Virus record (IMG/VR): IMGVR_UViG_2563366917_000002
DNA: 23,950 nt
Reading direction: 5' to 3' (one strand)
Source of the DNA: a virus
Lineage: Duplodnaviria > Heunggongvirae > Uroviricota > Caudoviricetes
This document shows, piece by piece, positions 3,019 to 23,700 of this stretch; position 1 is the stretch's first letter; each line of letters opens with the position of its first letter. The position numbers were made by a program, and so were the translations under genes. The notes under the pieces are model-generated. The model saw only the letters and a list, made by a program, of their open reading frames with translations. It did no database searches and was not told where the DNA came from.

Positions 3019-3689
3019 TGCTCTCCAAATACAAAACCAATTTCAGCCAGTGCTTCGTCCATTTTTTCGATGAACTCCGGCACCATCTCGTCAAAACTCG
3101 CCATGTACTTTTCATCCCGCTCAACCACGACATAATGCAGGCCTTCACGCTTCATTCGTGGGTCATAGTTGGCAAAGTACCAGGCATCTTTTCGTGTCAC
3201 CCACATGCTGTACTGCACCTGGGCCATGTAAGCCGACTTTATGGCCTCGAAACCACCGAGCCGGAACTTCATGAAATCCCGGGAGGTAAACGGGCATTTC
3301 AGCTCAAGGCCATTGCCGTCACTGCATAAACCATCGGGAGAGCAGGCGGTGCGCATACTTTCGTCGCGATAGATGATCGGGGATTCAGTAACATTCACGC
3401 CGGAAGTGAATTCAAACAGGGTTCTGGCGTCGTTCTCGTACTGTTTTCCCCACGCCAGCGCCTTAGCATTAACTTCCGGAGCCACACCGGTGCAAACCTC
3501 AGCCAGCAGGGTGTGGAAGTAGGACATTTTCATGTCAGGCCACTTCTTTCCTGAGCGGGGCTTTGCTATCACGTTGTGAACTTCTGAAGCGGTGATGACG
3601 CCGAGCCGTAATTTGTGCCATGCATCATCCCCCTGTTCGACAGCTCTCACGTCGATCCCGGTACGCTGCAGGATAATGTCCGGTGTCAT
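3009..3689 (-). CDS. exo: lambda exonuclease (Red-alpha), 5'-3' dsDNA exonuclease
   Basis: 226-aa ORF ([40 protein letters not shown]...) near-identical to lambda Exo as recalled. Start overlaps the bet stop. Confidence 0.95.
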
Positions 3690-4471
3690 GCTGCCACCTT
3701 CTGCTCAGTGGCTTTCTGTTTCAGGAATCCAAGAGCTTTCACTGCTTCGGCCTGTGTCAGTTCTGACGATGCGCGAATGTCGCGGCGAAATATCTGGGAA
3801 CAGAGCGGCAATAAGTCGTCATCCCATGTTTTGTCCAGGGCAATCAGCAGAGTGTTAATCTCCTGCATGGTTTCATCGTTAACCGGAGTGATGTCGCGTT
3901 CCGGCTGACGTTCTGCAGTGTATGCGGTATTTTCGACAATGCGCTCGGCTTCATCCTTGTCATAGATACCAGCAAATCCGAAGGCCAGACGGGCACACTG
4001 AATCATGGCTTTATGCCGTAACATCCGTTTGGGATGCGACTGCCACGGCCCCGTGATTTCTCTGCCTTCGCGGGTTTTGAATGGTTCGCGGCGGCATTCA
4101 TCCATCCACTCGGTAACGCAGATCGGATGATTGCGGTCTTTGCGGTAAATCCGGCATGTACATGATTCATTGTCCTGCTCAAAGTCCATACCATCAAACT
4201 GCTGGTTTTCATTGATGATGCGGGACCAGCCATCAACGCCCACCACCGGAACAATGCCGTTCTGCTTATCAGGGAAGGCGTAAATTTCTTTCGTCCACGG
4301 ATTAAGGCCGTACTGGTTGGCGACGATCAACAATGCGATGAACTGCGCATCGCTGGCATCACCTTTAAATGCCGTCTGGCGAAGAGTGGTGATCAGTTCC
4401 TGTGGGTCGACAGAATCCATGCCGACACGTTCAGCCAGCTTCCCTGCCAGCGTTGCGAGTGCTGTACTCAT
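3686..4471 (-). CDS. bet: Red-beta single-strand annealing protein
   Basis: 261-aa ORF ([66 protein letters not shown]...) matching lambda Bet as recalled. Confidence 0.95.
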
Positions 4472-4773: not shown

Positions 4774-4848
4774 GGCTGAACTCCTGAAAATGGCTGTGAA
4801 AATATCGCCCGCGAAATGCCAGGCTGATTAGGAAAACAGGAAAGGGGG

Positions 4849-4992
4849 TTAGTGAATGCTTTTGCTTGATCTCAGTTTCAGTATTAATATCCATTTTTTA
4901 TAAGCGTCGACGGCCTCACGAAACATCTTTTCATCGCCAATAAAAGTGGCGATAGTGAATTTAGTCTGGATAGCCATAATTGTTTGATCCAT
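4849..4992 (-). CDS. kil: Kil, host cell-division (FtsZ) inhibitor
   Basis: 47 codons ([47 protein letters not shown]) matching lambda Kil as recalled. Taken as the internal start of the 89-aa track ORF. Confidence 0.75.
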
Positions 4993-5125
4993 TTTTTGGG
5001 ACTCCTGGCTGATTAAGTATGTCGATAAGGCGTTTCCATCCGTCACGTAATTTACGGGTGATTCGTTCAAGTAAAGATTCGGAAGGGCAGCCAGCAACAG
5101 GCCACCCTGCAATGGCATATTGCAT
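4961..5125 (-). CDS. cIII: cIII, FtsH protease inhibitor
   Basis: Hand translation from the ATG at 5125 gives [54 protein letters not shown] (54 aa), overlapping kil as in lambda. Below the 60-aa cutoff, so absent from the ORF track. Confidence 0.8.
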   Translation of the reverse strand: MQYAIAGWPVAGCPSESLLERITRKLRDGWKRLIDILNQPGVPKNGSNNYGYPD

Positions 5126-5197
5126 GGTGTGCTCCTTATTTATACATAACGAAAAACGCCTCGAGTGAAGCGTAATTGGTATGCGGTAACGCCGCGC

Positions 5198-5566
5198 TCA
5201 GGCGGCCTTGATAGTCATATCATCTGAATCAAATATTCCTGATGTATCGATATCGGTAATTCTTATTCCTTCACTACCATCCATTGGAGGCCATCCTTCC
5301 TGACCATTTCCATCATTCCAGTCGAACTCACACACAACACCATATGCATTTAAGTCGCTTGAAATTGCTATAAGCAGAGCATGTTGCGCCAGCATGATTA
5401 ATACAGCATTTAATACAGAGCCGTGTTTATTGAGTCGGTATTCAGAGTCTGACCAGAAATTATTAATCTGGTGAAGTTTTTCCTCTGTCATTACGTCATG
5501 GTCAATTTCAATTTCTATTGATGCTTTCCAGTCGTAATCAATGATGTATTTTTTGATGTTTGACAT
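5198..5566 (-). CDS. ea10: Ea10-like early protein
   Basis: 122-aa ORF in the lambda ea10 position between cIII and ral. Length matches lambda Ea10; sequence identity not independently verified. Confidence 0.55.
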   Translation of the reverse strand: MSNIKKYIIDYDWKASIEIEIDHDVMTEEKLHQINNFWSDSEYRLNKHGSVLNAVLIMLAQHALLIAISSDLNAYGVVCEFDWNDGNGQEGWPPMDGSEGIRITDIDTSGIFDSDDMTIKAA

Positions 5567-5582
5567 CTATTCATATCCTCAT

Positions 5583-5612
5583 AGATAAAAAATCGCCCTC
5601 ACACTGGAGGGC
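5583..5612 (-). terminator. intrinsic terminator between ral and ea10 (tL-type)
   Basis: Plus gccctc(5595-5600)-acactg-gagggc(5607-5612), preceded on plus by A-rich atagataaaaaatc. On the minus strand this is a hairpin followed by GAUUUUUUAUCU. Confidence 0.5.
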
Positions 5613-5748
5613 AAAGAAGATTTCCAATAATCAGAACAAGTCGGCTCCTGTTTAGTTACGAGCGACATTGCTCCGTGTATTCACTCGTTGGAATGAATAC
5701 ACAGTGCAGTGTTTATTCTGTTATTTATGCCAAAAATAAAGGCCACTA

Positions 5749-5949
5749 TCAGGCAGCTTTGTTGTTCTGTTTACCAAGTTCTCTGGCAATCATTGCCGTC
5801 GTTCGTATTGCCCATTTATCGACATATTTCCCATCTTCCATTACAGGAAACATTTCTTCAGGCTTAACCATGCATTCCGATTGCAGCTTGCATCCATTGC
5901 ATCGTTTGAATTGTCCACACCATTGATTTGTATCAATAGTCGTAGTCAT
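5749..5949 (-). CDS. ral: Ral, restriction alleviation protein
   Basis: 66-aa ORF (MTTTIDTNQWCGQFKRCNGCKLQSECMVKPEEMFPVMEDGKYVDKWAIRTTAMIARELGKQNNKAA) matching lambda Ral as recalled. Confidence 0.8.
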   Translation of the reverse strand: MTTTIDTNQWCGQFKRCNGCKLQSECMVKPEEMFPVMEDGKYVDKWAIRTTAMIARELGKQNNKAA

Positions 5950-10272: not shown

Positions 10273-11172
10273 ATGACAAATACAGCAAAAATACTCAACT
10301 TCTGCAGAGGTAACTTTGCCAAACAGGAGCGTAATGTGGCAGATCTCGATGATGGTTACGCCAGACTATCAAATATGCTGCTTGAGGCTTATTCAGGCGC
10401 AGATCTGACCAAGCGACAGTTTAAAGTGCTGCTTGCCATTCTGCGTAAAACCTATGGATGGAATAAACCAATGGACAGAATCACCGATTCTCAACTTAGC
10501 GAGATTACAAAGTTACCCGTCAAACGGTGCAATGAAGCCAAGTTAGAACTCGTCAGAATGAATATTATCAAGCAGCAAGGCGGCATGTTTGGACCAAATA
10601 AAAACATCTCAGAATGGTGTATCCCTCAAAACGAGGGAAAATCCCCTAAAACGAGGGATAAAACATCCCTCAAATTGGGGGATTGCTATCCCTCAAAACA
10701 GGGGGACACAAAAGACACTATTACAAAAGAAAAAAGAAAAGATTATTCGTCAGAGAATTCTGGCGAATCCTCTGACCAGCCAGAAAACGACCTTTCTGTG
10801 GTGAAACCGGATGCTGCAATTCAGAGCGGCAGCAAGTGGGGGACAGCAGAAGACCTGACCGCCGCAGAATGGATGTTTGACATGGTGAAGACCATCGCGC
10901 CATCAGCCAGAAAACCGAATTTTGCAGGGTGGGCTAACGATATCCGCCTGATGCGTGAACGTGACGGACGTAACCATCGCGACATGTGTGTACTGTTCCG
11001 CTGGGCATGCCAGGACAACTTCTGGTCCGGTAACGTGCTGAGCCCGGCCAAACTCCGCGACAAGTGGACCCAGCTCGAAATCAACCGTAACAAGCAACAG
11101 GCAGGTGTGACAGCCTGCAAACCAAAACTCGACCTGACAAACACTGACTGGATTTACGGGGTGGATTTATGA
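10273..11172 (+). CDS. O: replication initiator O
   Basis: 299-aa ORF matching lambda O as recalled, with the origin iterons embedded in the coding sequence. Confidence 0.95.
   Translation: MTNTAKILNFCRGNFAKQERNVADLDDGYARLSNMLLEAYSGADLTKRQFKVLLAILRKTYGWNKPMDRITDSQLSEITKLPVKRCNEAKLELVRMNIIKQQGGMFGPNKNISEWCIPQNEGKSPKTRDKTSLKLGDCYPSKQGDTKDTITKEKRKDYSSENSGESSDQPENDLSVVKPDAAIQSGSKWGTAEDLTAAEWMFDMVKTIAPSARKPNFAGWANDIRLMRERDGRNHRDMCVLFRWACQDNFWSGNVLSPAKLRDKWTQLEINRNKQQAGVTACKPKLDLTNTDWIYGVDL
10621..10750 (+). repeat. ori-lambda: four ~19-20 bp iterons plus adjacent AT-rich unwinding region
   Basis: Direct repeats atccctcaaaacgagggaaa / atcccctaaaacgagggata / catccctcaaattgggggat / ctatccctcaaaacaggggga at 10621-10705, followed by an A-rich tract at 10706-10750. 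Confidence 0.85.
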
Positions 11173-14281: not shown

Positions 14282-14418
14282 TGTTTGAGTTTAATATGGC
14301 AGAACTTCTTCGCCACCGCTGGGGGCGTCTGCGCTTATATCGTTTCCTCGGTTCTGTTTTGACCGATTACCGAATACTGAAGAATTACGCCAAAACCCTG
14401 ACAGGAACAGGAGTATGA
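14278..14418 (+). CDS. ylcG: small protein, YlcG-like
   Basis: Hand-translated 45-46 codon ORF (M)[45 protein letters not shown] overlapping the rusA stop. Resembles DLP12 YlcG as recalled. Confidence 0.45.
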
Positions 14419-14503
14419 AGTCAGAGATAACAATCAACTAATACTGTTTTGTTGATTTTTGCTTGTAATTGGCGTTCTGGTCTGATTTTTGTGGAGTAAG
14501 TTG

Positions 14504-14887
14504 ATGCGTGATATTCAGATGGTTCTTGAGCGTTGGGGTGCGTGGGCGGCTAATAATCATGAAGATGTGACCTGGTCGTCCATTGCCGCCGGTTTTAAGG
14601 GATTAATTCCTTCAAAAGTAAAATCTCGCCCGCAATGTTGTGACGATGACGCGATGATCATTTGCGGGTGCATGGCCCGTCTGAAAAAGAACAACAGCGA
14701 TTTACACGATTTATTAGTAGATTATTATGTATGTGGTATGACATTCATGTCACTGGCAAGTAAGCATTGCTGCTCGGATGGTTATATCGGGAAAAGGTTA
14801 CAGAAGGCTGAGGGCATAATTGAAGGGATGTTAATGGCATTAGATATCCGGTTAGATATGGATATCGTTGCTAATAATTCTAATTGA
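14504..14887 (+). CDS. Q: late-gene antiterminator Q (phage 82 / DLP12 QuuD type)
   Basis: 127 aa from [26 protein letters not shown]..., with GGAG upstream. Cysteine cluster [12 protein letters not shown]. Matches QuuD as recalled. Confidence 0.85.
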
Positions 14888-14913
14888 TATGCAATTGTTT
14901 ACTAAAAGTTATT

Positions 14914-14932
14914 AAAAATGGGGCGTGGAAAC
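14914..14932 (-). terminator. intrinsic terminator for leftward transcription (downstream of the porin gene)
   Basis: Plus ggggcg-tggaaa-cgcccc, preceded on plus by an A-rich run (ttattaaaaat). On the minus strand this is a hairpin followed by AUUUUUAAUAA. Confidence 0.5.
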
Positions 14933-15030
14933 GCCCCCAAAATAAAGGGTAATATATAACAGAAGGTTTATATAGTAAGAAGCAAGGTAGTGCTTCTAAA
15001 GGAAGTGGCTTGAGGGCTCCACTTATATGT

Positions 15031-15069
15031 TGCGGAGGCAAAGCCTCCCGCAACATATCTTTTTCGTAA
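15031..15069 (+). terminator. intrinsic terminator for rightward transcription leaving Q (possibly bidirectional)
   Basis: Long GC stem atatgttgcggagg-caaag-cctcccgcaacatat followed by CTTTTT, located 7 nt from the porin stop codon. Confidence 0.6.
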
Positions 15070-15075
15070 GTCAGA

Positions 15076-16158
15076 TTAGAACTGATAAACCAGACCTACA
15101 GCGACGATGTCGTCGGTATCAATACCAGCTGTTTTGGTAAACTTACTATCGTCAATTAAGTTGATTTTGTAATCAACAAAAGTGGACATGTTTTTATTAA
15201 AGTAGTAAGTAGCACCGACATCGACATACTTGACTAAGTCTCGGTCACCATGAACACCAAGGTCTTTACCTTTTGACTGAAGGTAAGCAACAGATGGACG
15301 CAGACCGAAGTCAAACTGATATTGTGCTACTGCTTCAAAGTTTTGTGCTTTGTTTGCAATATGGTTATTACCAAAAACGGTCATATTCTGAGTTTCAGAA
15401 TATGTGGTAGCCAGATAGATATTGTTCGCATCATATTTCAGGCCTGCAGCCCATACTTCCGCATTTTTGCCGGAGGCATTGAATTTGCTCTTACCATAGG
15501 CGACCTGACCGTCAGTGCGATCTGATTTAGCATAGGTTGCACCCACGCCGAATCCTTCATACTCATAAGTAGTGGAGAAACCGAAACCATCACCATTGGC
15601 TTCAGTTACGTCAGTGCGGTCATTTTTACCCTGATACTGAGCAGCAAAGTTCAGGCCATCGACCAGACCAAAGAAGTCGTTGTTACGATAAGTTGCAACA
15701 CCAGTAGTGCGACCAGTCATGAACACATCTGTTTGGGTCCAGGTATCACCACCGAATTCTGGCAGAACGTCAGTCCACGCACCGATGTCGTATGCTACAC
15801 CGTAGTTACGGCCGTAATCGATTGAGCCGTAATCACCAAATTTCAGGCCTGCAAATGCAAGACGGGTTTTGTCTTTGGAAGAACCTTGAGATTCAGCACG
15901 GTTGCCTTTGAATTCATATTCCCACTGACCGAAACCAGTCAGTTGATCGTTGATTTGGGTTTCACCTTTGAAGCCAAGACGGGCATAAGTAGTATCACCA
16001 TCATCTGCATCATTAGAGGAGAAGTAGTGCTTGGCATTAACTTTCCCGTATAGATCCAGCTTGTTACTGTCTTTATTATAAATTTCAGCTGCCTGAGCAG
16101 ACATCGCCATCAGTACTGATGCAGCTACAGCAGAAATTGCCACTGTTAATTTTTTCAT
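15076..16158 (-). CDS. nmpC: outer-membrane general porin, NmpC/OmpD (Lc) family, phage-borne moron
   Basis: 360 aa from [23 protein letters not shown] (signal peptide) with the porin C-terminus ...VAVGLVYQF. Same position and orientation as nmpC in DLP12. Appears intact. Confidence 0.9.
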
Positions 16159-16587
16159 TGTACGCCCTTTTTTTGAACTATTATTAAAAAATGATGTCAC
16201 TGCGCGATAAATATTCATCTAATCAATGTGATTATTTCAAGATGTAAGTTTTAGTTTCTCATTTAATTTGTGAAGTAGATCTCTATTTTTATCTGAACCT
16301 TTTCTATCTAATCCTATTCATGGCTCTTGTCTGAACAAAAATAAATCTATTAGCTAATTTATATTAATGGCACTTATTTATAAGTGCTCTATAATTCTTT
16401 AGCTTAATTTAAACAAACTAAAAATAACATTGGAAATTATTAACTGGTTATTTGTTGAAGTTTTCTTATGCATTTGTGGTGGTGTTTTGAACACTCGGTG
16501 GCATTCTCACAAATATCATTTAGTAGTTTACGTACGTAAAAAATTGGTTATGCTGTTAAGAGTGGTTACTTCGTCACACAGCTTAAA

Positions 16588-16615
16588 CCCGCCGTCGAGC
16601 GGGTTTTTCCATTTT
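16588..16615 (+). terminator. intrinsic terminator just upstream of the lysis cassette (candidate tR')
   Basis: aaacccgc-cgtcga-gcgggttt hairpin followed by TTCCATTTTTT, about 130 nt upstream of the holin start. Confidence 0.45.
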
Positions 16616-16746
16616 TTGAGTCTCGATATTAGCTGATAACCCAATACCTGAGTTATTCACTGACTCCGAATCTGTTACGTTTCTGCCTTTATTGCGATAC
16701 GTAGTATCCCCTTAATTTACACCCGCTTTGTCTGCGAGGTGGGGTT

Positions 16747-16962
16747 ATGAAATCCATGGATAAGTTAACAACGGGTGTCGCCTATGGTACCTCAGCAGGT
16801 AGTGCCGGGTACTGGTTTTTACAGTTGCTCGATAAAGTCACGCCCTCACAGTGGGCGGCAATAGGTGTGCTGGGTAGCCTGGTATTTGGCCTGCTGACGT
16901 ACCTGACAAACCTTTATTTCAAGATTAAAGAAGATAAGCGCAAGGCTGCGAGAGGTGAATAA
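16747..16962 (+). CDS. S: class II holin, phage 21 S21-type pinholin
   Basis: 71-aa ORF with a dual-start motif (MKSMDK...) and two transmembrane segments ([17 protein letters not shown]... / [23 protein letters not shown]). Resembles S21 as recalled. Confidence 0.85.
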
Positions 16963-17459
16963 TGCCTCCATCATTACGAAAAGCCGTTGCTGCTGCTATT
17001 GGTGGCGGAGCAATTGCTATAGCATCAGTGTTAATCACTGGCCCAAGTGGTAACGATGGTCTGGAAGGTGTCAGCTACATACCATACAAAGATATTGTTG
17101 GTGTATGGACTGTATGTCACGGGCATACAGGAAAAGACATCATGCTCGGTAAAACGTATACCAAAGCAGAATGCAAAGCCCTCCTGAATAAAGACCTTGC
17201 CACGGTCGCCAGACAAATTAACCCGTACATCAAAGTCGATATACCGGAAACAATGCGCGGCGCTCTTTACTCATTCGTTTACAACGTGGGTGCTGGCAAT
17301 TTCAGAACATCGACGCTTCTTCGCAAAATAAACCAGGGCGATATCAAAGGCGCATGTGATCAGCTACGTCGCTGGACATATGCTGGCGGTAAGCAATGGA
17401 AAGGTCTCATGACTCGTCGTGAGATTGAGCGTGAAATCTGTTTGTGGGGTCAGCAATGA
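16962..17459 (+). CDS. R: SAR endolysin (lysozyme with N-terminal signal-anchor-release domain)
   Basis: 165-aa ORF with a Gly/Ala-rich hydrophobic N-terminus ([18 protein letters not shown]), followed by a T4-lysozyme-like catalytic region. Confidence 0.85.
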
Positions 17460-17917
17460 ACAGAGTAACCGCGATTATCTCCGCTCTGGTTATCTGCATC
17501 ATCGTCTGCCTGTCATGGGCTGTTAATCATTACCGTGATAACGCCATTACCTACAAAGCCCAGCGCGACAAAAATGCCAGAGAACTGACGCTGGCGAACG
17601 CGGTAATTACTGACATACAGATGCGTCAGCGTGATGTTGCTGCGCTCGATGCAAAATACACGAAGGAGTTAGCTGATGCGAAAGCTGAAAATGATGCTCT
17701 GCGTGATGATGTTGCCGCTGGTCGTCGTCGGTTGCACATCAAAGCAGTCTGTCAGTCAGTGCGTGAAGCCACCACCGCCTCCGGCGTGGATAATGCAGCC
17801 TCCCCCCGACTGGCAGACACCGCTGAACGGGATTATTTCACCCTCAGAGAGAGGCTGATCACTATGCAAAAACAACTGGAAGGAACCCAGAAGTATATTA
17901 ATGAGCAGTGCAGATAG
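17456..17917 (+). CDS. Rz: Rz i-spanin
   Basis: ATG overlaps the R stop. N-terminal transmembrane segment, then coiled-coil-like periplasmic domain. Confidence 0.8.
17676..17858 (+). CDS. Rz1: Rz1 o-spanin lipoprotein, embedded in the +1 frame of Rz
   Basis: 60-aa ORF with a lipobox (LVVVGCTS) and a proline-rich stretch ([18 protein letters not shown]), lying wholly inside Rz. Confidence 0.75.
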
Positions 17918-17948: not shown

Positions 17949-18242
17949 TTATTGTGAGCAATACACACGCGCTTCCAGCGGAGTATAAATGCCTAAAGTA
18001 ATAAAACCGAGCAATCCATTTACGAATGTTTGCTGGGTTTCTGTTTTAACAACATTTTCTGCACCACCACAAATTTTTGCTGCATCGACAGTTTTCTTCT
18101 GCCCAATTCCCGAAACGAAGAAATGATGGGTGATGGTTTCCTTTGGTGTTACTGCTGTAGGTTTGTTTCCAACAGTAAACGTCTGTTGAGCACATCCTGT
18201 AATAAGCATTGCCAGAGCGGCAGAAAACAACATTTTTTTCAT
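17949..18242 (-). CDS. bor: Bor serum-resistance lipoprotein
   Basis: 97 aa from MKKMLFSAALAMLITGCAQQ..., matching lambda Bor as recalled. Lipobox LITGC. Confidence 0.9.
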   Translation of the reverse strand: MKKMLFSAALAMLITGCAQQTFTVGNKPTAVTPKETITHHFFVSGIGQKKTVDAAKICGGAENVVKTETQQTFVNGLLGFITLGIYTPLEARVYCSQ

Positions 18243-18722
18243 CTTATTATCCTGCATTGTTAAAAACGGCAGAATCCTATGTGACAACAATTAAACGATA
18301 GTTAAATGGATTGATGAAAATTAAAACTACACAGGTGGGCTCAGACTATTGGAGGAAGTTGGGGACACTCAGAATCCTGTGGAATGAAATAAACCGGTCT
18401 ATCCGTCCATTACCCTTTTAGCTGCGCTGTATCGTCGCCGTATTCCCGCATTAACCATGACCGTAGCCCGACGGGGAATTCCTTCTGCGTGAGTGTGCGG
18501 GAATAATTAAAAACGATGCACACCGGGTTTTTACCGCGTTAATGATTCGCGGGTTTATCCCGGTGCGATGGTGGAAGAAACAGGAAGCTGTATTACAGAA
18601 AGTGCTACTACTGTATCCCGATGCGATGTATGTAATGTGAGTCAGATAATGGCACAGGATGTGGTGATGTGGCAGTCTGGAACACAGGATATATTGTCAG
18701 AATAAGACCCGTAGGAATAAAA

Positions 18723-19049
18723 ATGAAAAGACGCCTTTTACTACTTTTTCTGTTATCTGTCCTGGCAGTGGGATGCTCGCAGCAAAAAGCTGATGAGCCC
18801 CGGCAATTAGTGACGGTGTATCCACGATATCCGGAATATGCTGCAGCAAATTATATCAAGGGGCTGGTTGAGGTTAAGTTCGATATTGGTGCTGATGGGA
18901 CTGTGACACGGATCGTTTTTCTCCGCTCAGAGCCTCATAATTTGTTTCGTGATGAAGTGGTGAAGGCCATGGCGAAATGGCGATTTGAAAAGAATCGCCC
19001 CTGTCAGGGAGTGAAGAGACAATTTATCTTTACGCCGTCACGTCCTTGA
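18723..19049 (+). CDS. lipoprotein consisting of a TonB C-terminal-like domain
   Basis: 108 aa from MKRRLLLLFLLSVLAVGCSQ (lipobox LAVGC). Residues ~30-95 align to the E. coli TonB C-terminal domain (ours YPRYPEYAAANYIKGLVEVKFDIGADGTVTRIVFLRSEPHNLFRDEVVKAMAKWRFE versus TonB [57 protein letters not shown], from memory). Confidence 0.6.
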   Translation: MKRRLLLLFLLSVLAVGCSQQKADEPRQLVTVYPRYPEYAAANYIKGLVEVKFDIGADGTVTRIVFLRSEPHNLFRDEVVKAMAKWRFEKNRPCQGVKRQFIFTPSRP

Positions 19050-20000: not shown

Positions 20001-20549
20001 ATGAAGGTTAATAAAAAGAGGCTTGCCGAAATTTTCAACGTGGACCCGCGGACGATTGAACGCTGGCAGTCTCAGGGACTCCCTTGCGCCTCCAAAGGTA
20101 GTAAGGGCATTGAATCTGTATTTGATACTGCCATGGCAATTCAGTGGTATGCGCAGAGGGAAACTGATATCGAAAACGAAAAGCTCCGCAAAGAACTGGA
20201 CGATTTGCGTGCGGCAGCGGAGTCAGATTTACAACCCGGCACCATTGACTATGAACGCTACCGGCTCACAAAAGCGCAGGCAGATGCGCAGGAACTGAAA
20301 AATGCCCGTGAAGACGGAGTAGTGCTGGAAACTGAACTGTTTACCTTCATTCTGCAACGTGTGGCACAGGAGATTTCGGGGATACTTGTGCGTGTGCCGT
20401 TGACATTACAGCGTAAATATCCGGACATTTCACCATCACACCTTGATGTGGTGAAAACTGAAATCGCGAAAGCCTCCAATGTTGCAGCTAAGGCCGGTGA
20501 AAACGTGGGCGGGTGGATCGATGATTTCAGACGCGCAGAAGGCAGCTAA
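20001..20549 (+). CDS. nu1: terminase small subunit (Nu1-like)
   Basis: 182-aa ORF ([28 protein letters not shown]... winged HTH) homologous to lambda Nu1 as recalled, directly downstream of cos. Confidence 0.9.
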
Positions 20550-21306
20550 TGCAGCCGGTGCGATAGCTACAGGGCTTTTATCTCTCATTATTCCTGTTCC
20601 ACTGACGACAGTTCAGTGGGCCAATAAACATTATTACCTTCCTAAAGAGTCGTCTTATACCCCGGGGCGATGGGAAACACTGCCGTTTCAGGTTGGCATC
20701 ATGAACTGTATGGGCAACGATCTGATTCGCACGGTTAACCTGATTAAATCTGCCCGTGTTGGTTATACAAAGATGTTGCTGGGAGTGGAGGCTTATTTTA
20801 TTGAGCATAAATCACGCAACAGCCTTCTTTTTCAGCCCACGGACTCAGCTGCTGAAGATTTTATGAAATCTCATGTTGAGCCAACGATAAGGGATGTTCC
20901 TGCATTGCTGGAGCTGGCTCCATGGTTCGGAAGAAAACACCGCGATAATACGCTCACCCTGAAGCGTTTTTCCTCCGGTGTGGGGTTCTGGTGTCTGGGT
21001 GGTGCGGCAGCAAAAAACTACCGTGAAAAATCCGTGGATGTGGTCTGTTATGACGAGCTTTCCTCGTTCGAACCGGATGTTGAAAAAGAGGGTTCGCCAA
21101 CCCTGCTGGGGGATAAACGTATTGAGGGCTCTGTATGGCCAAAATCCATTCGCGGCTCGACGCCTAAAATCAAAGGCTCCTGCCAGATCGAAAAAGCCGC
21201 TAACGAGTCGGCACACTTCATGCGTTTTTATGTGCCCTGTCCGCACTGTGGGGAGGAGCAGTATCTGAAATTTGGCGATGATGCCTCGCCTATGAGACGA
21301 CAATAA
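20521..21306 (+). pseudogene. A: terminase large subunit (gpA) 5' fragment, interrupted by an IS insertion
   Basis: Homologous to the lambda gpA N-terminus (...VQWANKHYYLPKESSYTPGRWETLPFQ...). Reading frame is lambda-like up to ...KFGDDASP at 21291, then runs into the IS and stops at 21306. Confidence 0.85.
21285..21291. repeat. target-site duplication (left copy), CTCGCCT
   Basis: The 7-bp sequence ctcgcct occurs at 21285-21291 and again at 23701-23707, flanking the IS. Removing the IS and one copy restores the gpA frame. Confidence 0.6.
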
Positions 21307-21383
21307 CTCAGTCCGCCTGGCGCCGATTATTCTGGCCGGTTTTGTAACCTGAGTGTCATTTACATGATCCAACAGGAAATGGC

Positions 21384-22883
21384 GTGACGCTCAATACTTC
21401 TCAGGTCAGTTACTATATGACTCAGCGTAAGAAAGGTATAACTCAGCATATCTCGGCCATGAAGGCTGGTATCTCAGTCCGTTCTGGTCGTCGGATCGAA
21501 AAAGGAGAGTGGGCAAAAAACAGTGTTCGGCACTGGCGCACACGCAAAGATCCTCTGGAAGCTGTGTGGGACAGCATGCTTGTTCCTCTGTTGAAAGAGA
21601 GGCCGGCTCTGACACCAACAACTCTGCTGGAGATGCTACAGGATAAATATCCCGGCCAGTACCCCAACAGCCTTCGAAGAACAATGCAACGGCGGGTCCG
21701 CGAATGGAAGCTACAGTATGGTGCAGAGCAGGAGGTCATGTTCCGCCAGCGACATCAGCCCGGTCTGCGAGGTCTGTCGGACTTTACTGAACTGAAAGGT
21801 GTAGTTGTCACCATCGCCGGTAAGTTGTTGGCGCATAAGTTGTATCACTTCCGTCTGGAATGGAGCCACTGGAGCTGGATGCGGGTTGTGCTGGGTGGTG
21901 AGAGCTTCTCTGCTCTGGCTGAAGGTCTGCAGGAAGCCCTCGGACAACTGGGCGGAGTGCCGGTAGAACATAAAACGGACAGCCTGAGGGCAGCATGGAA
22001 ACAACAGGGCGAAGATGGACGCCGCGAGCTGACTGAGCGTTATGCTGCTCTCTGTCAGCACTACGGAATGCAGGGCGTACACAATAATGCCGGTCGGGGC
22101 CACGAAAATGGCTCGGTTGAAAGTGCCCACGGACATCTGAAAAGGCGTATCTGTCAGGCGCTGATACTGCGGGGCAGTAACGACTTCAGCACCATAGAAG
22201 AATATCAGGCCTTCATCACTCAGCAGGTTATGCGGCACAACCGTAACAATCAGGATCTGGTCAAGGAAGAACGTCTTCATCTGAAACCGCTGCCGCTTCG
22301 TCGCAGTGCTGACTATGATGAGCTGACTGTGAGGGTTAGCCGCAGCAGTACCATCAATGTGAAGCACGTCGTCTACAGCGTACCTTCCCGGCTTGTAGGT
22401 CAACTGTTACGGGTCCGGTTATGGGACGATCGTCTGAGCTGTTACGTTGGCAGCAGCGAGGTCATGAGCTGCCCACGTGTCAGACCAGAAAAAGGGAAGA
22501 CGCGGGCCCGTCGTATCGACTTCCGACATGTGATCGACAGTCTGGCAAAAAAGCCCGGTGCGTTCTGCCATGCAACGCTGAGAAATGACATCCTGCCAGA
22601 CGATGAATGGCGGAGGCTGTGGCGTCGCTTATGTAATCATCTGGAACCCGACATGGCAGGCAGGCTGATGGTACATGCTCTGAAACTGGCTGCAGGATAC
22701 GACGATATCTCAGTCGTGGCAAAAGGTATGGAGCAGATGCTGAATACCCCGGGAAACGTGGATCTGCACCGGCTGATGCGCTTCCTGGGTATAAAGGAAA
22801 AGGCGTTGCCGGTAGTCAATGTGAAACAGCATAACCTGAGCAGTTATGAGCAACTACTGCGTGGCAAGGGAGGTTCGCAGTGA
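21384..22883 (+). CDS. istA: IS21-family transposase IstA
   Basis: 499-aa ORF; the track start is GTG at 21384, and an internal ATG at 21417 is an alternative. N-terminal HTH (ITQHISAMKAGISVRSGRRIEKGEW) followed by a DDE-type integrase core. Confidence 0.85.
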   Translation: MTLNTSQVSYYMTQRKKGITQHISAMKAGISVRSGRRIEKGEWAKNSVRHWRTRKDPLEAVWDSMLVPLLKERPALTPTTLLEMLQDKYPGQYPNSLRRTMQRRVREWKLQYGAEQEVMFRQRHQPGLRGLSDFTELKGVVVTIAGKLLAHKLYHFRLEWSHWSWMRVVLGGESFSALAEGLQEALGQLGGVPVEHKTDSLRAAWKQQGEDGRRELTERYAALCQHYGMQGVHNNAGRGHENGSVESAHGHLKRRICQALILRGSNDFSTIEEYQAFITQQVMRHNRNNQDLVKEERLHLKPLPLRRSADYDELTVRVSRSSTINVKHVVYSVPSRLVGQLLRVRLWDDRLSCYVGSSEVMSCPRVRPEKGKTRARRIDFRHVIDSLAKKPGAFCHATLRNDILPDDEWRRLWRRLCNHLEPDMAGRLMVHALKLAAGYDDISVVAKGMEQMLNTPGNVDLHRLMRFLGIKEKALPVVNVKQHNLSSYEQLLRGKGGSQ

Positions 22884-23635
22884 GCAATATCCATCACCTT
22901 GAACGCAGCCTGCGTAAACTACGCCTGACACGAGTTGGAGCTGAATGGCACGCTCTGGAAAAACGAGCACTGGCAGAAGGCTGGACACCATCGCGCTATC
23001 TTCTGACGCTATGCAATGAAGAACTCCTGTGGCGCGAGAGTGAAAAACTGCGTCGTTATAAAAAGGAGGCCCGGTTGCCAGTTGCCAAAACGCTAAGCGA
23101 ATACGACTTCAGTCAGGTGCCGGAACTGAATGGAGCTCAGTTCCGGCAACTCTGTGAAACGACAGACTGGGTTGATGCAGGAGAAAACGTTCTGCTGTTC
23201 GGAGCCAGCGGGTTGGGGAAAAGCCATCTGGCGGCAGCGATCGTGGATGGCGTAGTAGGCCAGGGCTACCGGGCCCGGTTCTACAGCGCAGGAGAGTTGT
23301 TGCAGGAACTACGTAAAGCCAGAGCGCAGTTGAAACTGAATGAGCTGCTACTGAAACTGGATCGCTACCGGGTGATAGTGGTGGATGATCTTGGCTATGT
23401 CAAACGCGACAGCGCCGAAACGGGAGTACTGTTCGAGTTAATAGCGCATCGCTATGAACGTGGGAGCCTGGTGATAACCAGTAACCATCCGTTCAGCATG
23501 TGGGGCAGCATCTTCGTGGATGAGACTATGGCGGTGGCGGCGGCAGACCGGCTGATCCATCACGGATATATGTTCGAACTGAAAGGTGAAAGCTACAGGA
23601 AAAAGACAGCGAAGGCAGTAACAAGCGCGACTTGA
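22880..23635 (+). CDS. istB: IS21-family helper ATPase IstB (DnaC-like AAA+)
   Basis: 251-aa ORF overlapping the istA stop. Walker A GASGLGKSHLAAA and Walker B VIVVDDLGY. Confidence 0.9.
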   Translation: MSNIHHLERSLRKLRLTRVGAEWHALEKRALAEGWTPSRYLLTLCNEELLWRESEKLRRYKKEARLPVAKTLSEYDFSQVPELNGAQFRQLCETTDWVDAGENVLLFGASGLGKSHLAAAIVDGVVGQGYRARFYSAGELLQELRKARAQLKLNELLLKLDRYRVIVVDDLGYVKRDSAETGVLFELIAHRYERGSLVITSNHPFSMWGSIFVDETMAVAAADRLIHHGYMFELKGESYRKKTAKAVTSAT

Positions 23636-23700
23636 TGTCGCACTGAAGGGTGCGGCCAGTATAGTTGGCGCGAGTCGGCAAAACTAGTTGACGTCTAATA

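Follow-up and report, generated by a model that had tools for sequence, protein, structure and literature searches.

A probable Lc/NmpC porin moron with an ipeX-homologous 3' UTR in a lambda-like prophage

The window analysed here, the whole 23,950-nucleotide stretch of the Caudoviricetes record IMGVR_UViG_2563366917_000002, very probably carries the Lc/NmpC porin moron as an intact allele, within a phage-lambda-like prophage adjoining icd. The feature as such is already known: Lc/NmpC porins, their 'qsr' place and the ipeX RNA were described from the 1970s to 2006, and hundreds of genomes have this exact sequence annotated, under the PGAP label 'porin OmpC'. Being both common and already described, the porin-ipeX unit is thus ordinary, but it remains of use in annotation and in predicting phenotypes. 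The unit, from about 14912 to about 16500, would be self-contained, combining an activator-type promoter region, a general-diffusion porin gene, a structured 3' UTR and a terminator of its own, and it would sit between Q and the late promoter pR' in the orientation opposite to that of the phage genes (Table 1). Because of this position and strand, its expression would require neither early transcription under repressor control nor late transcription under Q.

Table 1. Features of the Q-porin-lysis region, in window coordinates
Feature	Position	Strand	Remarks
Q antiterminator, QuuD type, 127 aa	14504-14887	+	PF06530, E = 7.7e-54
Porin 3' UTR, ipeX-homologous	14912-15075	-	four local stem-loops and terminator
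Intrinsic terminator of the porin/ipeX transcript	14913-14937	-	stem GGGGCGU-UUCC-ACGCCCC at 14920-14937, then AUUUUUA
Bulged 15-bp stem-loop, first stem of the 3' UTR RNA	15025-15058, T-run to 15066	both	folding
Porin gene, Lc/NmpC/OmpD clade	15076-16158	-	360 aa; stop codon 15076-15078
Porin signal peptide, 23 aa	16090-16158	-	ends AQA/AE (slash, cleavage point)
Porin 5' leader and AT-rich control region	16159-16523	-	26.5% GC
SigmaE-like promoter (GAACT, 17 nt, TCACT)	16175-16207, +1 at 16207	+	published DLP12 lysis operon numbering
CRP-like site TGTGAAGTAGATCTCT	16269-16284	-	agrees with the site annotated in the PA-2 record J02580 (1986)
pR' -35, TTTACG	16527-16532	+	VT2-Sakai homology
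Repeated GGTTA(T/C), pause/qut element region	16546 and 16564	+	
pR' -10, TATGCT	16549-16554	+	
tR' hairpin with T-run	16585-16606; late block through 16618	+	terminator scan
Phage-21-type holin	16747-16962	+	
Lysis genes: phage-21-type holin, SAR-type lysozyme, Rz with embedded Rz1	16747-17917	+	Pfam PF04971, PF00959, PF03245

Identity and integrity of the porin gene

The porin is contained in a single minus-strand open reading frame (15076..16218) and starts at the ATG at 16158, in agreement with the starts of Lc and NmpC and with a Shine-Dalgarno sequence, AAGGG, at 16165-16169. Careful translation from this ATG is clean, with zero frameshifts and zero internal stops over the 360 aa, and the intactness assumed in the preliminary description is thereby upheld. 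The protein covers positions 1-337 of 337 of Pfam Porin_1 (PF00267, E = 1.9e-151) and reaches 521 bits against a cutoff of 484 for the NCBIfam OmpC subfamily. Its signal peptide and the AEIYNK that follows agree in every residue with what GenBank J02580 annotates for Lc; with the full-length family match and this 23-aa signal peptide, the claim of a complete opposite-strand porin between Q and the holin is borne out. The motif of the constriction loop L3, PEFGGD, is present as LPEFGGDTW, and the C-terminus reads YQF.

Protein identity is 90.7% both to PA-2 Lc and to the rejoined NmpC of K-12, compared with 78.9% to Salmonella OmpD, 62.5% to PhoE, 62.4% to OmpC and 58.6% to OmpF, in accordance with the initial designation of the porin as NmpC-like. 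Among solved structures, OmpC, OmpK36 and PhoE are the best relatives (E = 1e-133 to 1e-137), and the 62% identity to solved OmpC points to a predicted trimeric, 16-stranded beta-barrel diffusion pore.

Genomic context and moron character

As assigned with Pfam and NCBIfam, the gene order runs RusA, YlcG, Q (PF06530), porin, phage-21 holin, lysozyme, Rz/Rz1 and Bor. The porin therefore occupies the place of nmpC in the K-12 prophage DLP12, as had been proposed, with the same gene order and with IS5 inserted within the K-12 gene. Q is 96% identical to K-12 QuuD and 81% identical over 120 aa to the Q of VT2-Sakai; its likeness to the Q proteins of 933W and VT2-Sakai stops near residue 120 (about 14866), and the Q21 structure 6P18 is a distant match (E = 4e-8). 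The prophage that carries the porin here is itself defective, an IS21-family insertion lying in its terminase gene.

The association of the porin with its neighbours could be followed in other genomes. Among 80 viral contigs with this Q, all that extend far enough carry the porin on the opposite strand between Q and the lysis genes. In E. albertii, the porin (89%) and an ipeX-like UTR (87%) stand next to a different Q, of 30% identity, and the cassettes cease to be similar just past the T-tract of the terminator. In VT2-Sakai, by contrast, the 81%-identical Q is abutted by a homologous pR' block and the porin is absent at that junction. The moron reading of the preliminary description is sustained by the terminator belonging to the unit, by the lack of the porin in VT2-Sakai despite the same Q type, and by the expression of a near-identical copy in a lysogen (PMC9928086).

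The 3' UTR and its hairpins

The gap between Q and the porin, which holds the porin 3' UTR, is 93.7% identical to the quuD-nmpC gap of K-12 (188-189 nt) and also aligns with PA-2. The UTR reaches a folding energy of -53.6 kcal/mol (z = -6.2). It spans about 165 nt between the stop codon and the terminator, in line with the 167 nt reported for ipeX, an RNA whose exact ends and mechanism are taken from reviews. According to those reviews, ipeX is made from within the porin transcript and lowers OmpC and OmpF (PMC12197685, PMC5069750, PMC8065619, PMC3333887); on its Hfq dependence, they are at odds. Judged by its sequence, the stretch between the two hairpins is the ipeX regulatory RNA region, which was overlooked in the first reading, and the porin 3' UTR deserves to be annotated as such.

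Scanning of the whole window against Rfam at the gathering score left the porin UTR unmatched, the sole match being the lambda cIII thermoregulator at 5080-5138; this null says little about ipeX, because ipeX apparently has no Rfam model. Covariation in the UTR was limited to one compensatory pair, a count equalled by 114 of 500 shuffles, the sequences being too alike. The svsR sRNA of prophage NC-SV was considered as a related element and rejected, as it sits at the 3' end of cI and is unrelated to the porin.

Two hairpins lie in this region, and both had been described as terminators. They were missed by the inverted-repeat finder, owing to a bulge and to short arms, and folding results were used in its place. 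The leftward one, announced at 14914-14932, does exist: it was detected by the consensus terminator scan, folds with a dG of -13.8 kcal/mol and has the minus-strand tail AUUUUUAAUA, while its coordinates had been a few bases off. All 7 pairs are unchanged in K-12, in a 94% allele and in E. albertii. This leftward hairpin is the only clear terminator for the porin transcript, which it would end ahead of an antisense run into Q.

The rightward hairpin, previously given as a terminator at 15031-15069, is likewise real and has a U-rich plus-strand tail, the stem being followed by CUUUUUCG (15059-15066) about 10 nt short of the porin stop codon. Its dG is -21.9 kcal/mol on the plus strand (z = -6.3), where none of 200 shuffles folds as well, and -22.5 kcal/mol on the minus strand (z = -5.2). 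The consensus terminator scan did not call it, however, because of the one bulge in its stem, and it is primarily the 5' stem-loop of ipeX. One C-G to U-A compensatory change is found in E. albertii, and the T-run after the stem counts 5 in the window, K-12 and PA-2 and 4 in other alleles. By its fold and tail, the hairpin is plausibly also a plus-strand terminator for unmodified transcripts leaving Q. The stop-proximal stem-loop may work on both strands, in that it would be part of the ipeX RNA on one and, when read on the other, would stop unmodified transcripts arriving from Q.

It had been suggested instead that the hairpins act as a convergent pair of terminators, bracketing the cassette and shielding it from phage transcription on either side. 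The hairpins themselves do exist, with a U-rich tail on the strand claimed for each, and the plus-strand hairpin is placed where transcripts exiting Q would enter the porin in antisense. Both, however, are located 3' of the porin stop (14913-14937 and 15025-15066), whereas on the 5' side the AT-rich control region is followed by pR', qut and tR', with no terminator facing the porin. Moreover, the stretch between them is the conserved ipeX UTR, the plus-strand T-run is only 4-5 long and varies between alleles, and the stop-adjacent stem is common to cassettes beside different Q genes, so that it is to be counted as part of the porin RNA. Polymerase that leaves pR during induction, being N-modified, would in any case read through the hairpin, as is established for lambda. 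Bracketing in this sense is not upheld by the positions of the hairpins, and insulation from both sides is considered rather unlikely.

Late promoter

The late promoter was located via the annotation of VT2-Sakai, where a late promoter, a Q-utilisation site and a terminator are labelled 'putative'. The pR'/qut/tR' block at 16527-16612 is 78% identical over 85 bp to that of VT2-Sakai, with otherwise unrelated flanks, and places the porin between Q and pR' rather than inside the late operon. In most of the 80 Q-bearing loci, counting those that reach far enough, a late-promoter motif lies downstream of the porin in the direction of the phage genes. Annotation of the late promoter thus belongs at 16527-16554, not beside Q.

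A further interpretation takes the hairpin at 15025-15066 as tR' of a late promoter directly after Q, with late transcription running antisense through the porin to the lysis genes. It is true that pR' directly follows Q in lambda and in 933W-type phages, and that the hairpin lies about 140-180 nt past the Q stop, much like the lambda 6S RNA arrangement. A scan of 14888-15025, however, found no promoter-like site on the plus strand, the homologue of the pR'/qut/terminator of VT2-Sakai, the phage with the 81%-identical Q, sits just upstream of the holin, and in E. albertii the stretch from Q to the hairpin travels with the porin rather than with Q. The tR' identity of this hairpin was rejected on the grounds of the missing upstream promoter and the pR' homologue at 16527-16612, and such an arrangement must be regarded as extremely improbable.

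Upstream control region and expression

The control region upstream of the porin (16159-16523) is 90% identical to that of K-12, and part of it is conserved in E. albertii. Candidate positions for the transcription start of the porin lie at about 16204-16225. A scan for a consensus-grade sigma-70 promoter on the minus strand upstream of the porin found none, and the CRP motif occurs 9 times against 13 expected, so that the motif alone is not above chance. OmpR sites, the presence of which had been raised as a possibility, were looked for in the upstream region and are unsupported: the best match to ompC upstream elements is to the C1 box, TTACATCTTGAAA (16235-16247), whose score is equalled by 44% of shuffles and which is without paired half-sites 10 bp apart. 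NmpC reportedly came to light through selection in ompB (ompR/envZ) mutants, an origin that speaks against OmpR dependence.

Primer Pdlp12Fw, whose position is given as -121 in the published DLP12 lysis operon numbering, falls at 16086-16105. The sigmaE-like promoter, whose predicted placement is carried over from that numbering, is directed away from the porin and across the porin promoter. A search for the sigmaE pattern GAACT-N15-17-TCNNA gave zero matches, because the -10 element here is TCACT. Firing of this sigmaE-type promoter (+1 at 16207) across the porin promoter may shut the porin off under envelope stress, and the 26.5% GC of the upstream region makes silencing, for example by H-NS, possible.

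These features raise the question of whether the porin is intact yet silent, a quiescent remnant like nmpC of laboratory strains and without effect on the host. K-12 nmpC is inactive through IS5, a title cited in PMC3333887 describes the nmpC of E. coli BE as 'quiescent', the AT content upstream of the porin is extremely high, and the prophage copy is defective through the terminase insertion. On the other hand, the NmpC gene of phage Perceval, a 99.3% identical copy, is transcribed 10-fold over local background in the LF82 lysogen (PMC9928086), and hundreds of genomes preserve, with at least 99% identity, an unbroken open reading frame together with its signal peptide, Shine-Dalgarno sequence, UTR and terminator. 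In addition, the half that diverges from lc differs mostly synonymously (80 synonymous versus 28 non-synonymous codons in codons 151-355), an excess that indicates purifying selection on a working protein. A silent porin is consequently improbable.

Distribution and allele mosaicism

E. coli ATCC 11775, S88 and APEC O1 have, at 100% identity, the 2.4-kb stretch that leads from Q through the porin to the holin. Of 5426 complete E. coli genomes, 2393 cover at least 80% of this stretch, and the isolated phages ev017, PhiR57_1 and Perceval match it at 99-99.9% identity. Nucleotide comparison with lc reveals an uneven pattern, in which codons 1-150 differ by 0-4%, codons 151-355 by 12-35% and the flanks by 6-10%. 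This distribution suggests that the 3' 60% of the porin gene may have been replaced by recombination with a far more divergent porin. Such a replacement would alter the portions that align with surface loops and leave the ipeX tail and promoter region in place. It is conceivable, if doubtful when all parts are taken together, that the mosaic allele and the Q-porin cassette form a diversifying 'receptor exchange' module, along with a dual-strand stem-loop and sigmaE shut-off. If the alleles differ in phage or antibody binding while ipeX always removes OmpC, lysogens would show differing phage-resistance and antigen profiles.

Proposed role in the lysogen

The porin would be exported via Sec and assembled as an outer-membrane pore, and the 3' UTR of its transcript would provide the ipeX RNA, lowering the synthesis of OmpC and OmpF. 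With the phage porin made and ipeX acting on OmpC and OmpF, the cell would thus swap porins: the chromosomal porins of the host would be exchanged for the phage porin, small-molecule uptake being kept and OmpC removed. OmpC is a receptor for PA-2 and other phages, and the outcome would be lysogenic conversion with exclusion of superinfecting phage. The classical account of PA-2 lysogens is that Lc is gained as OmpC declines. The earlier conjecture that a phage-encoded porin could change permeability or mask a receptor corresponds to this account, the ipeX part of which is confirmed by the reviews, and we infer a receptor-swap benefit for this allele as well. Strains that carry the unit undamaged often belong to extraintestinal pathogenic E. 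coli (S88, APEC O1), and their porin complement is probably altered. Such a change bears on antibiotic entry, on surface antigens and on phage susceptibility, also where OmpC-dependent phages are used in therapy.

Comparison with known systems

The closest described counterpart is lc of phage PA-2 (J02580), which shares the position upstream of phage-21-type lysis genes, the orientation and the 3' UTR. The signal peptide and N-terminal 150 residues of Lc are identical to those of the porin here, and its upstream region is 91.9% identical, annotated CRP site included. Lc has 365 aa as against 360 aa, with two small indels within codons 151-355, at sites where porin paralogues vary in length and which are presumed to be surface loops L4-L8. 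Given the divergence in the C-terminal 60%, properties measured for Lc may not fully transfer to this allele.

DLP12 (qsr') of K-12 has the identical order rusA, ylcG, quuD, porin, essD, rrrD, rzpD, borD; besides the Q-porin gap (93.7%), its porin-holin gap is 90.3% identical. The prophage here adjoins icd, whereas K-12 nmpC lies in the prophage at the DLP12 site. K-12 nmpC is cut by IS5 58 bp before the stop, so that ipeX is no longer joined to the porin promoter; in the present prophage, the porin gene runs unbroken into its UTR, and ipeX should therefore come with the porin mRNA, as in PA-2.

Salmonella OmpD and the OmpD/OmpC-like porins of Citrobacter and Enterobacter belong to the same clade (74-81% protein identity), and a RybB seed match early in the coding region is common to OmpD and the porin here. 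Their ompD-type genes are chromosomal, however, with no detectable similarity to this UTR or this upstream region and with no Q or holin close by. In the Stx phages 933W and VT2-Sakai, the late block overlaps the end of Q and is followed by tRNA and stx genes, whereas here about 1.65 kb, comprising a new Q tail, ipeX, the porin and its control region, parts Q from the late block, and the holin follows directly. The bor/iss and lom-type morons of the same prophage likewise encode outer-membrane proteins, lie on the opposite strand or are transcribed independently, and are expressed from the prophage; unlike them, the porin unit has a trans-acting regulatory RNA in its 3' UTR.

Structure and allele of the porin gene

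Between Q and the holin gene, the minus strand carries a complete porin gene, the sequence, homology and position of which are directly observed. Within the single long ORF, the start is assigned to an in-frame ATG at 16158, which matches the start of Lc (the porin of lambdoid phage PA-2) and NmpC and is preceded by AAGGG (16165-16169), giving a protein of 360 residues. Its first 23 residues are the same as the annotated signal peptide of PA-2 Lc. The preliminary description had proposed an intact porin gene with a signal peptide at this location, and translation bears this out, revealing neither a frameshift nor a premature stop. The protein matches Pfam Porin_1 over its full length (E = 1.9e-151), passes the NCBIfam OmpC-subfamily cutoff (521 versus 484 bits), has OmpC, OmpK36 and PhoE as its nearest solved relatives (E about 1e-135), and contains the PEFGGD loop-3 motif and a C-terminal YQF. 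Alignment supports the NmpC-like identity first assigned, with 90.7% identity to PA-2 Lc, 90.7% to K-12 NmpC with IS5 removed, 78.9% to Salmonella OmpD, 62.5% to PhoE, 62.4% to OmpC and 58.6% to OmpF; database searches returned entries labelled NmpC, 'outer membrane porin protein LC' and OmpD.

Nucleotide difference from PA-2 lc is 0-4% over codons 1-150 and 12-35%, with two small indels, over codons 151-355, where about 80 codon changes are synonymous and 28 non-synonymous; the flanks of the gene are alike again (90-99%). Relative to lc and nmpC, the gene is a mosaic; its breakpoint lies close to codon 150, at about 15710, and the divergent part makes up 60% of it. This pattern indicates that a divergent porin contributed sequence by recombination and that purifying selection has acted on a working protein. 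The protein differences coincide with indel positions of porin paralogues, suggesting that the differing segments are surface loops, and this particular allele may be beneficial.

Coordinates and bases of features in and around the porin unit and in the terminase region
Feature	Position	Strand	Details
Left neighbours: RusA, YlcG, Q antiterminator			Q, PF06530
Leftward terminator	stem 14920-14937	minus	tail AUUUUUAAUA; consensus scan; fold -13.8 kcal/mol
Rightward hairpin	15025-15058		15-bp stem, one bulge; then CUUUUUCG on plus; fold
Porin ORF	15076..16218	minus	single long ORF on that strand
Putative pR' -35, TTTACG	16527-32		homology to VT2-Sakai block
Putative pR' -10, TATGCT	16549-54		homology to VT2-Sakai block
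GGTTAC	16564		in late block
Terminator hairpin of late block	16585-16606		followed by T-run
Right neighbours: phage-21-type holin, lysozyme, Rz/Rz1, Bor homologue		Bor on minus
GpA_ATPase ORF	20479-21306
IstA-like ORF	21384-22883		in IS21-family element
IstB	22880-23635		PF01695, E = 9.5e-62

The 3' untranslated region and ipeX

The porin had been described as bracketed by convergent terminators. Both hairpins exist, a few bases from the positions first assigned, but the bracketing is incorrect, as both lie inside the 188 bp that separate the stop of Q (14887) from that of the porin (15076). The rightward hairpin is very stable (-21.9 kcal/mol, z = -6.3; as stable in 0 of 200 shuffles). On the minus strand the next bases are AAGUGG, so the porin transcript would not terminate there, and termination on the plus strand may occur at 15059-15066.

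The porin 3' UTR spans about 165 nt from the stop codon to where the terminator tail ends (15075 down to about 14912) and is 93.7% identical to the K-12 sequence. The regulatory RNA ipeX was reportedly located by Castillo-Keller et al. in 2006 between the nmpC stop codon and the nmpC terminator, and the porin 3' UTR is, judging from its sequence, the ipeX region. What had been called the rightward terminator is the first stem-loop of the ipeX-region RNA. Reviews describe ipeX as a 167-nt DLP12 RNA, also present in PA-2, that is transcribed from the phage porin promoter within the porin transcript, is then processed, and reduces OmpC and OmpF (PMC12197685, PMC5069750, PMC8065619, PMC3333887). 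The UTR RNA folds into the terminator and four local stem-loops (-53.6 kcal/mol, z = -6.2). In a comparison of the window, K-12, a 94%-identity allele and Escherichia albertii, 97% of pair cells are conserved, with most substitutions in loops; covariation is not significant, the sole compensatory change being C-G to U-A at the top of the first stem.

One IMG/VR contig (L043; Q 3501-3881, porin 4788-5867) carries about 0.7 kb of extra DNA between these genes, a few bases into the ipeX region and directly past the porin stop codon, an insertion that would part the porin from most of ipeX and the terminator.

Late promoter placement and modularity of the cassette

The window Q shares 81% identity over 120 residues with Q of the 933W-type phage VT2-Sakai; the likeness ends near residue 120 (about 14866), the 933W-type tail of about 24 residues being replaced by the last 7 residues of the window Q. 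In VT2-Sakai, the end of Q overlaps with what is annotated as a putative late promoter, and a 'Q-utilisation' site and a terminator come next, whereas in the window the late block lies 1.64 kb from Q (16524-16618), the homologue of the 85-bp VT2-Sakai block being 16524-16608 (78% identical). Its flanks are unrelated to VT2-Sakai, making the block an island of similarity; it is conserved in K-12 and PA-2, and in most viral contigs that have this Q and reach that far, its motif lies downstream of the porin. Because of this VT2-Sakai-like block, and because the scan detected no promoter-like site from Q to the 15025 hairpin, pR' and tR' are putatively placed at 16527-16554 and 16585-16618; on the same grounds, the possibility that the 15025 hairpin represents tR' was rejected. 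The porin unit therefore lies between Q and the putative pR', with Q-modified late transcription beginning downstream, without crossing the porin. The preliminary interpretation is right in outline and wrong on terminator bracketing, and it missed both ipeX and the displaced pR'.

Of the viral contigs with this Q (97-100% identical), all 80 that reach far enough carry the porin, and the loci examined encode 17 distinct porin proteins. One genome per species was scanned, and OmpD-clade porins proved chromosomal in Salmonella, Citrobacter, Enterobacter, Lelliottia and Klebsiella spallanzanii, resembling the window neither in the ipeX UTR nor in the upstream region and lacking a nearby Q. In E. 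albertii NBRC 107761 (locus L108, 1117-2700), the porin (89% identical), the UTR (87% identical over 154 nt) and some of the upstream region adjoin a very different Q (30% identical), and similarity to the window stops exactly after the T-run of the terminator; this locus provides direct evidence that the cassette is transferred as a whole from one late-control module to another. Based on the viral-contig, species-scan and E. albertii comparisons, the unit edges are set at 14866-14912 on the left and between 16451 and 16524 on the right.

Promoter region and regulation

Upstream of 16158, the scan of the minus strand yielded no sigma-70 promoter of consensus grade, and the GC content of 16200-16500 is 26.5%. 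Candidate porin promoters include TTGAAA, 18 nt, GAATAT, or AATAAT (16231-16236), which would place the start at about 16204-16225. Two CRP sites marked in the PA-2 GenBank record map to 16266-16286 (TGTGAAGTAGATCTCT) and 16562-16582, the latter overlapping the pause region of pR'; CRP matches with two mismatches are not enriched in the window (9 versus 13 expected). OmpR sites upstream of the porin, raised in the preliminary description, gave a test result not above chance.

According to the published primers for the DLP12 lysis-operon promoter fragment ('-121 to +650'), the reported +1 of that operon falls at 16207, which is preceded by the sigmaE-like GAACT, 17 nt, TCACT (16175-16207, plus strand). 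By this published numbering, what looks like a sigmaE-like promoter in the porin leader DNA would fire across both the CRP-like site and the promoter of the porin, so that transcription of the porin could be disturbed under envelope stress. The RybB 5' seed (GCCACUG) pairs perfectly over 7 nt with CAGUGGC at coding +14 to +20 (16139-16145; -13.9 kcal/mol; equalled by about 4% of shuffles), in agreement with reported RybB control of nmpC and ompD. Also present in the gap is a good match to a sigma-70-like promoter (ATGGCA, 17 nt, TATAAT; 16367-16395, plus strand), about 170 bp upstream of pR', which overlaps an 8+8 palindrome (GCACTTAT-TT-ATAAGTGC, 16370-16387) that is less perfect in K-12.

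Expression and proposed role

Evidence for expression and for ipeX activity comes from the literature. In an LF82 lysogen, transcription of the porin gene of prophage Perceval ('Outer membrane porin NmpC') exceeds the local prophage background 10-fold, and the gene is counted among the morons with a TonB fragment (PMC9928086); the Perceval region is 99.3% identical to the window (match H41), in which the TonB fragment is also found. The best account of the porin unit is the classical porin swap: from an independent, probably CRP-assisted promoter, the prophage would make its own general porin, the transcript would stop at the terminator (14913-14937), and the 3' UTR would work as ipeX, lowering OmpC and OmpF, so that the lysogen would exchange its porins and lose an OmpC receptor.

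Other features of the prophage

An IS21-family element of 2.4 kb (21292-23700) splits the terminase large-subunit gene, and the prophage should therefore be unable to package DNA, with the porin unit intact; the S88 prophage lacks this element and is otherwise 99.98% identical. Just past the lysis genes lie two moron-like genes, a Bor homologue (17949-18290, minus strand; annotated in S88 as the serum-survival lipoprotein Iss) and an ORF with only the TonB C-terminal domain (18669-19049, plus strand), a fragment reported to be expressed from the near-identical LF82 prophage Perceval (PMC9928086). In the early-left region, which is lambda-like, the Rfam model of the lambda cIII thermoregulator element is matched over its full length (5080-5138, minus strand; 88.5 bits, E = 1e-20). 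The replication gene O (299 aa, 10273-11172) is intact, whereas S88 gene O is annotated as frameshifted, with a short indel relative to 10637-10687 that probably lies in the iteron repeats. Positions 1-1200, compared with locus L089, represent the integrase end, which in the S88 prophage directly adjoins icd, the attachment site for phage 21 and e14.

Distribution and comparison with known systems

The region 14400-16800 (2401 bp) is 100% identical in ATCC 11775 (the E. coli type strain), S88, APEC O1 and many other extraintestinal isolates, is matched at >=99% by 645 records, and is present over at least 80% of its length in 2393 of 5426 complete genomes, with RefSeq names quuD, ompC ('porin OmpC') and essD. 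Isolated or induced phages in the phage collection, among them ev017, PhiR57_1, 2G7b, 4A7 and Perceval, are 99.3-99.9% identical to it, their porin being called NmpC, OmpD or porin. Because the porin unit is already known and widespread, its importance is low, and only three points are mildly new: the exact layout of the insertion compared with 933W-type phages, the recombinant nature of the gene's 3' part, and the crowded, overlapping promoters of the porin-holin gap. The gene order of K-12 DLP12 is the same, confirming the proposed equivalence to the nmpC position, with 93.7% identity in the Q-porin gap and 90.3% in the porin-holin gap. In K-12, however, IS5 sits inside nmpC and severs ipeX from the porin promoter, whereas gene and UTR are continuous in the window, as in PA-2.
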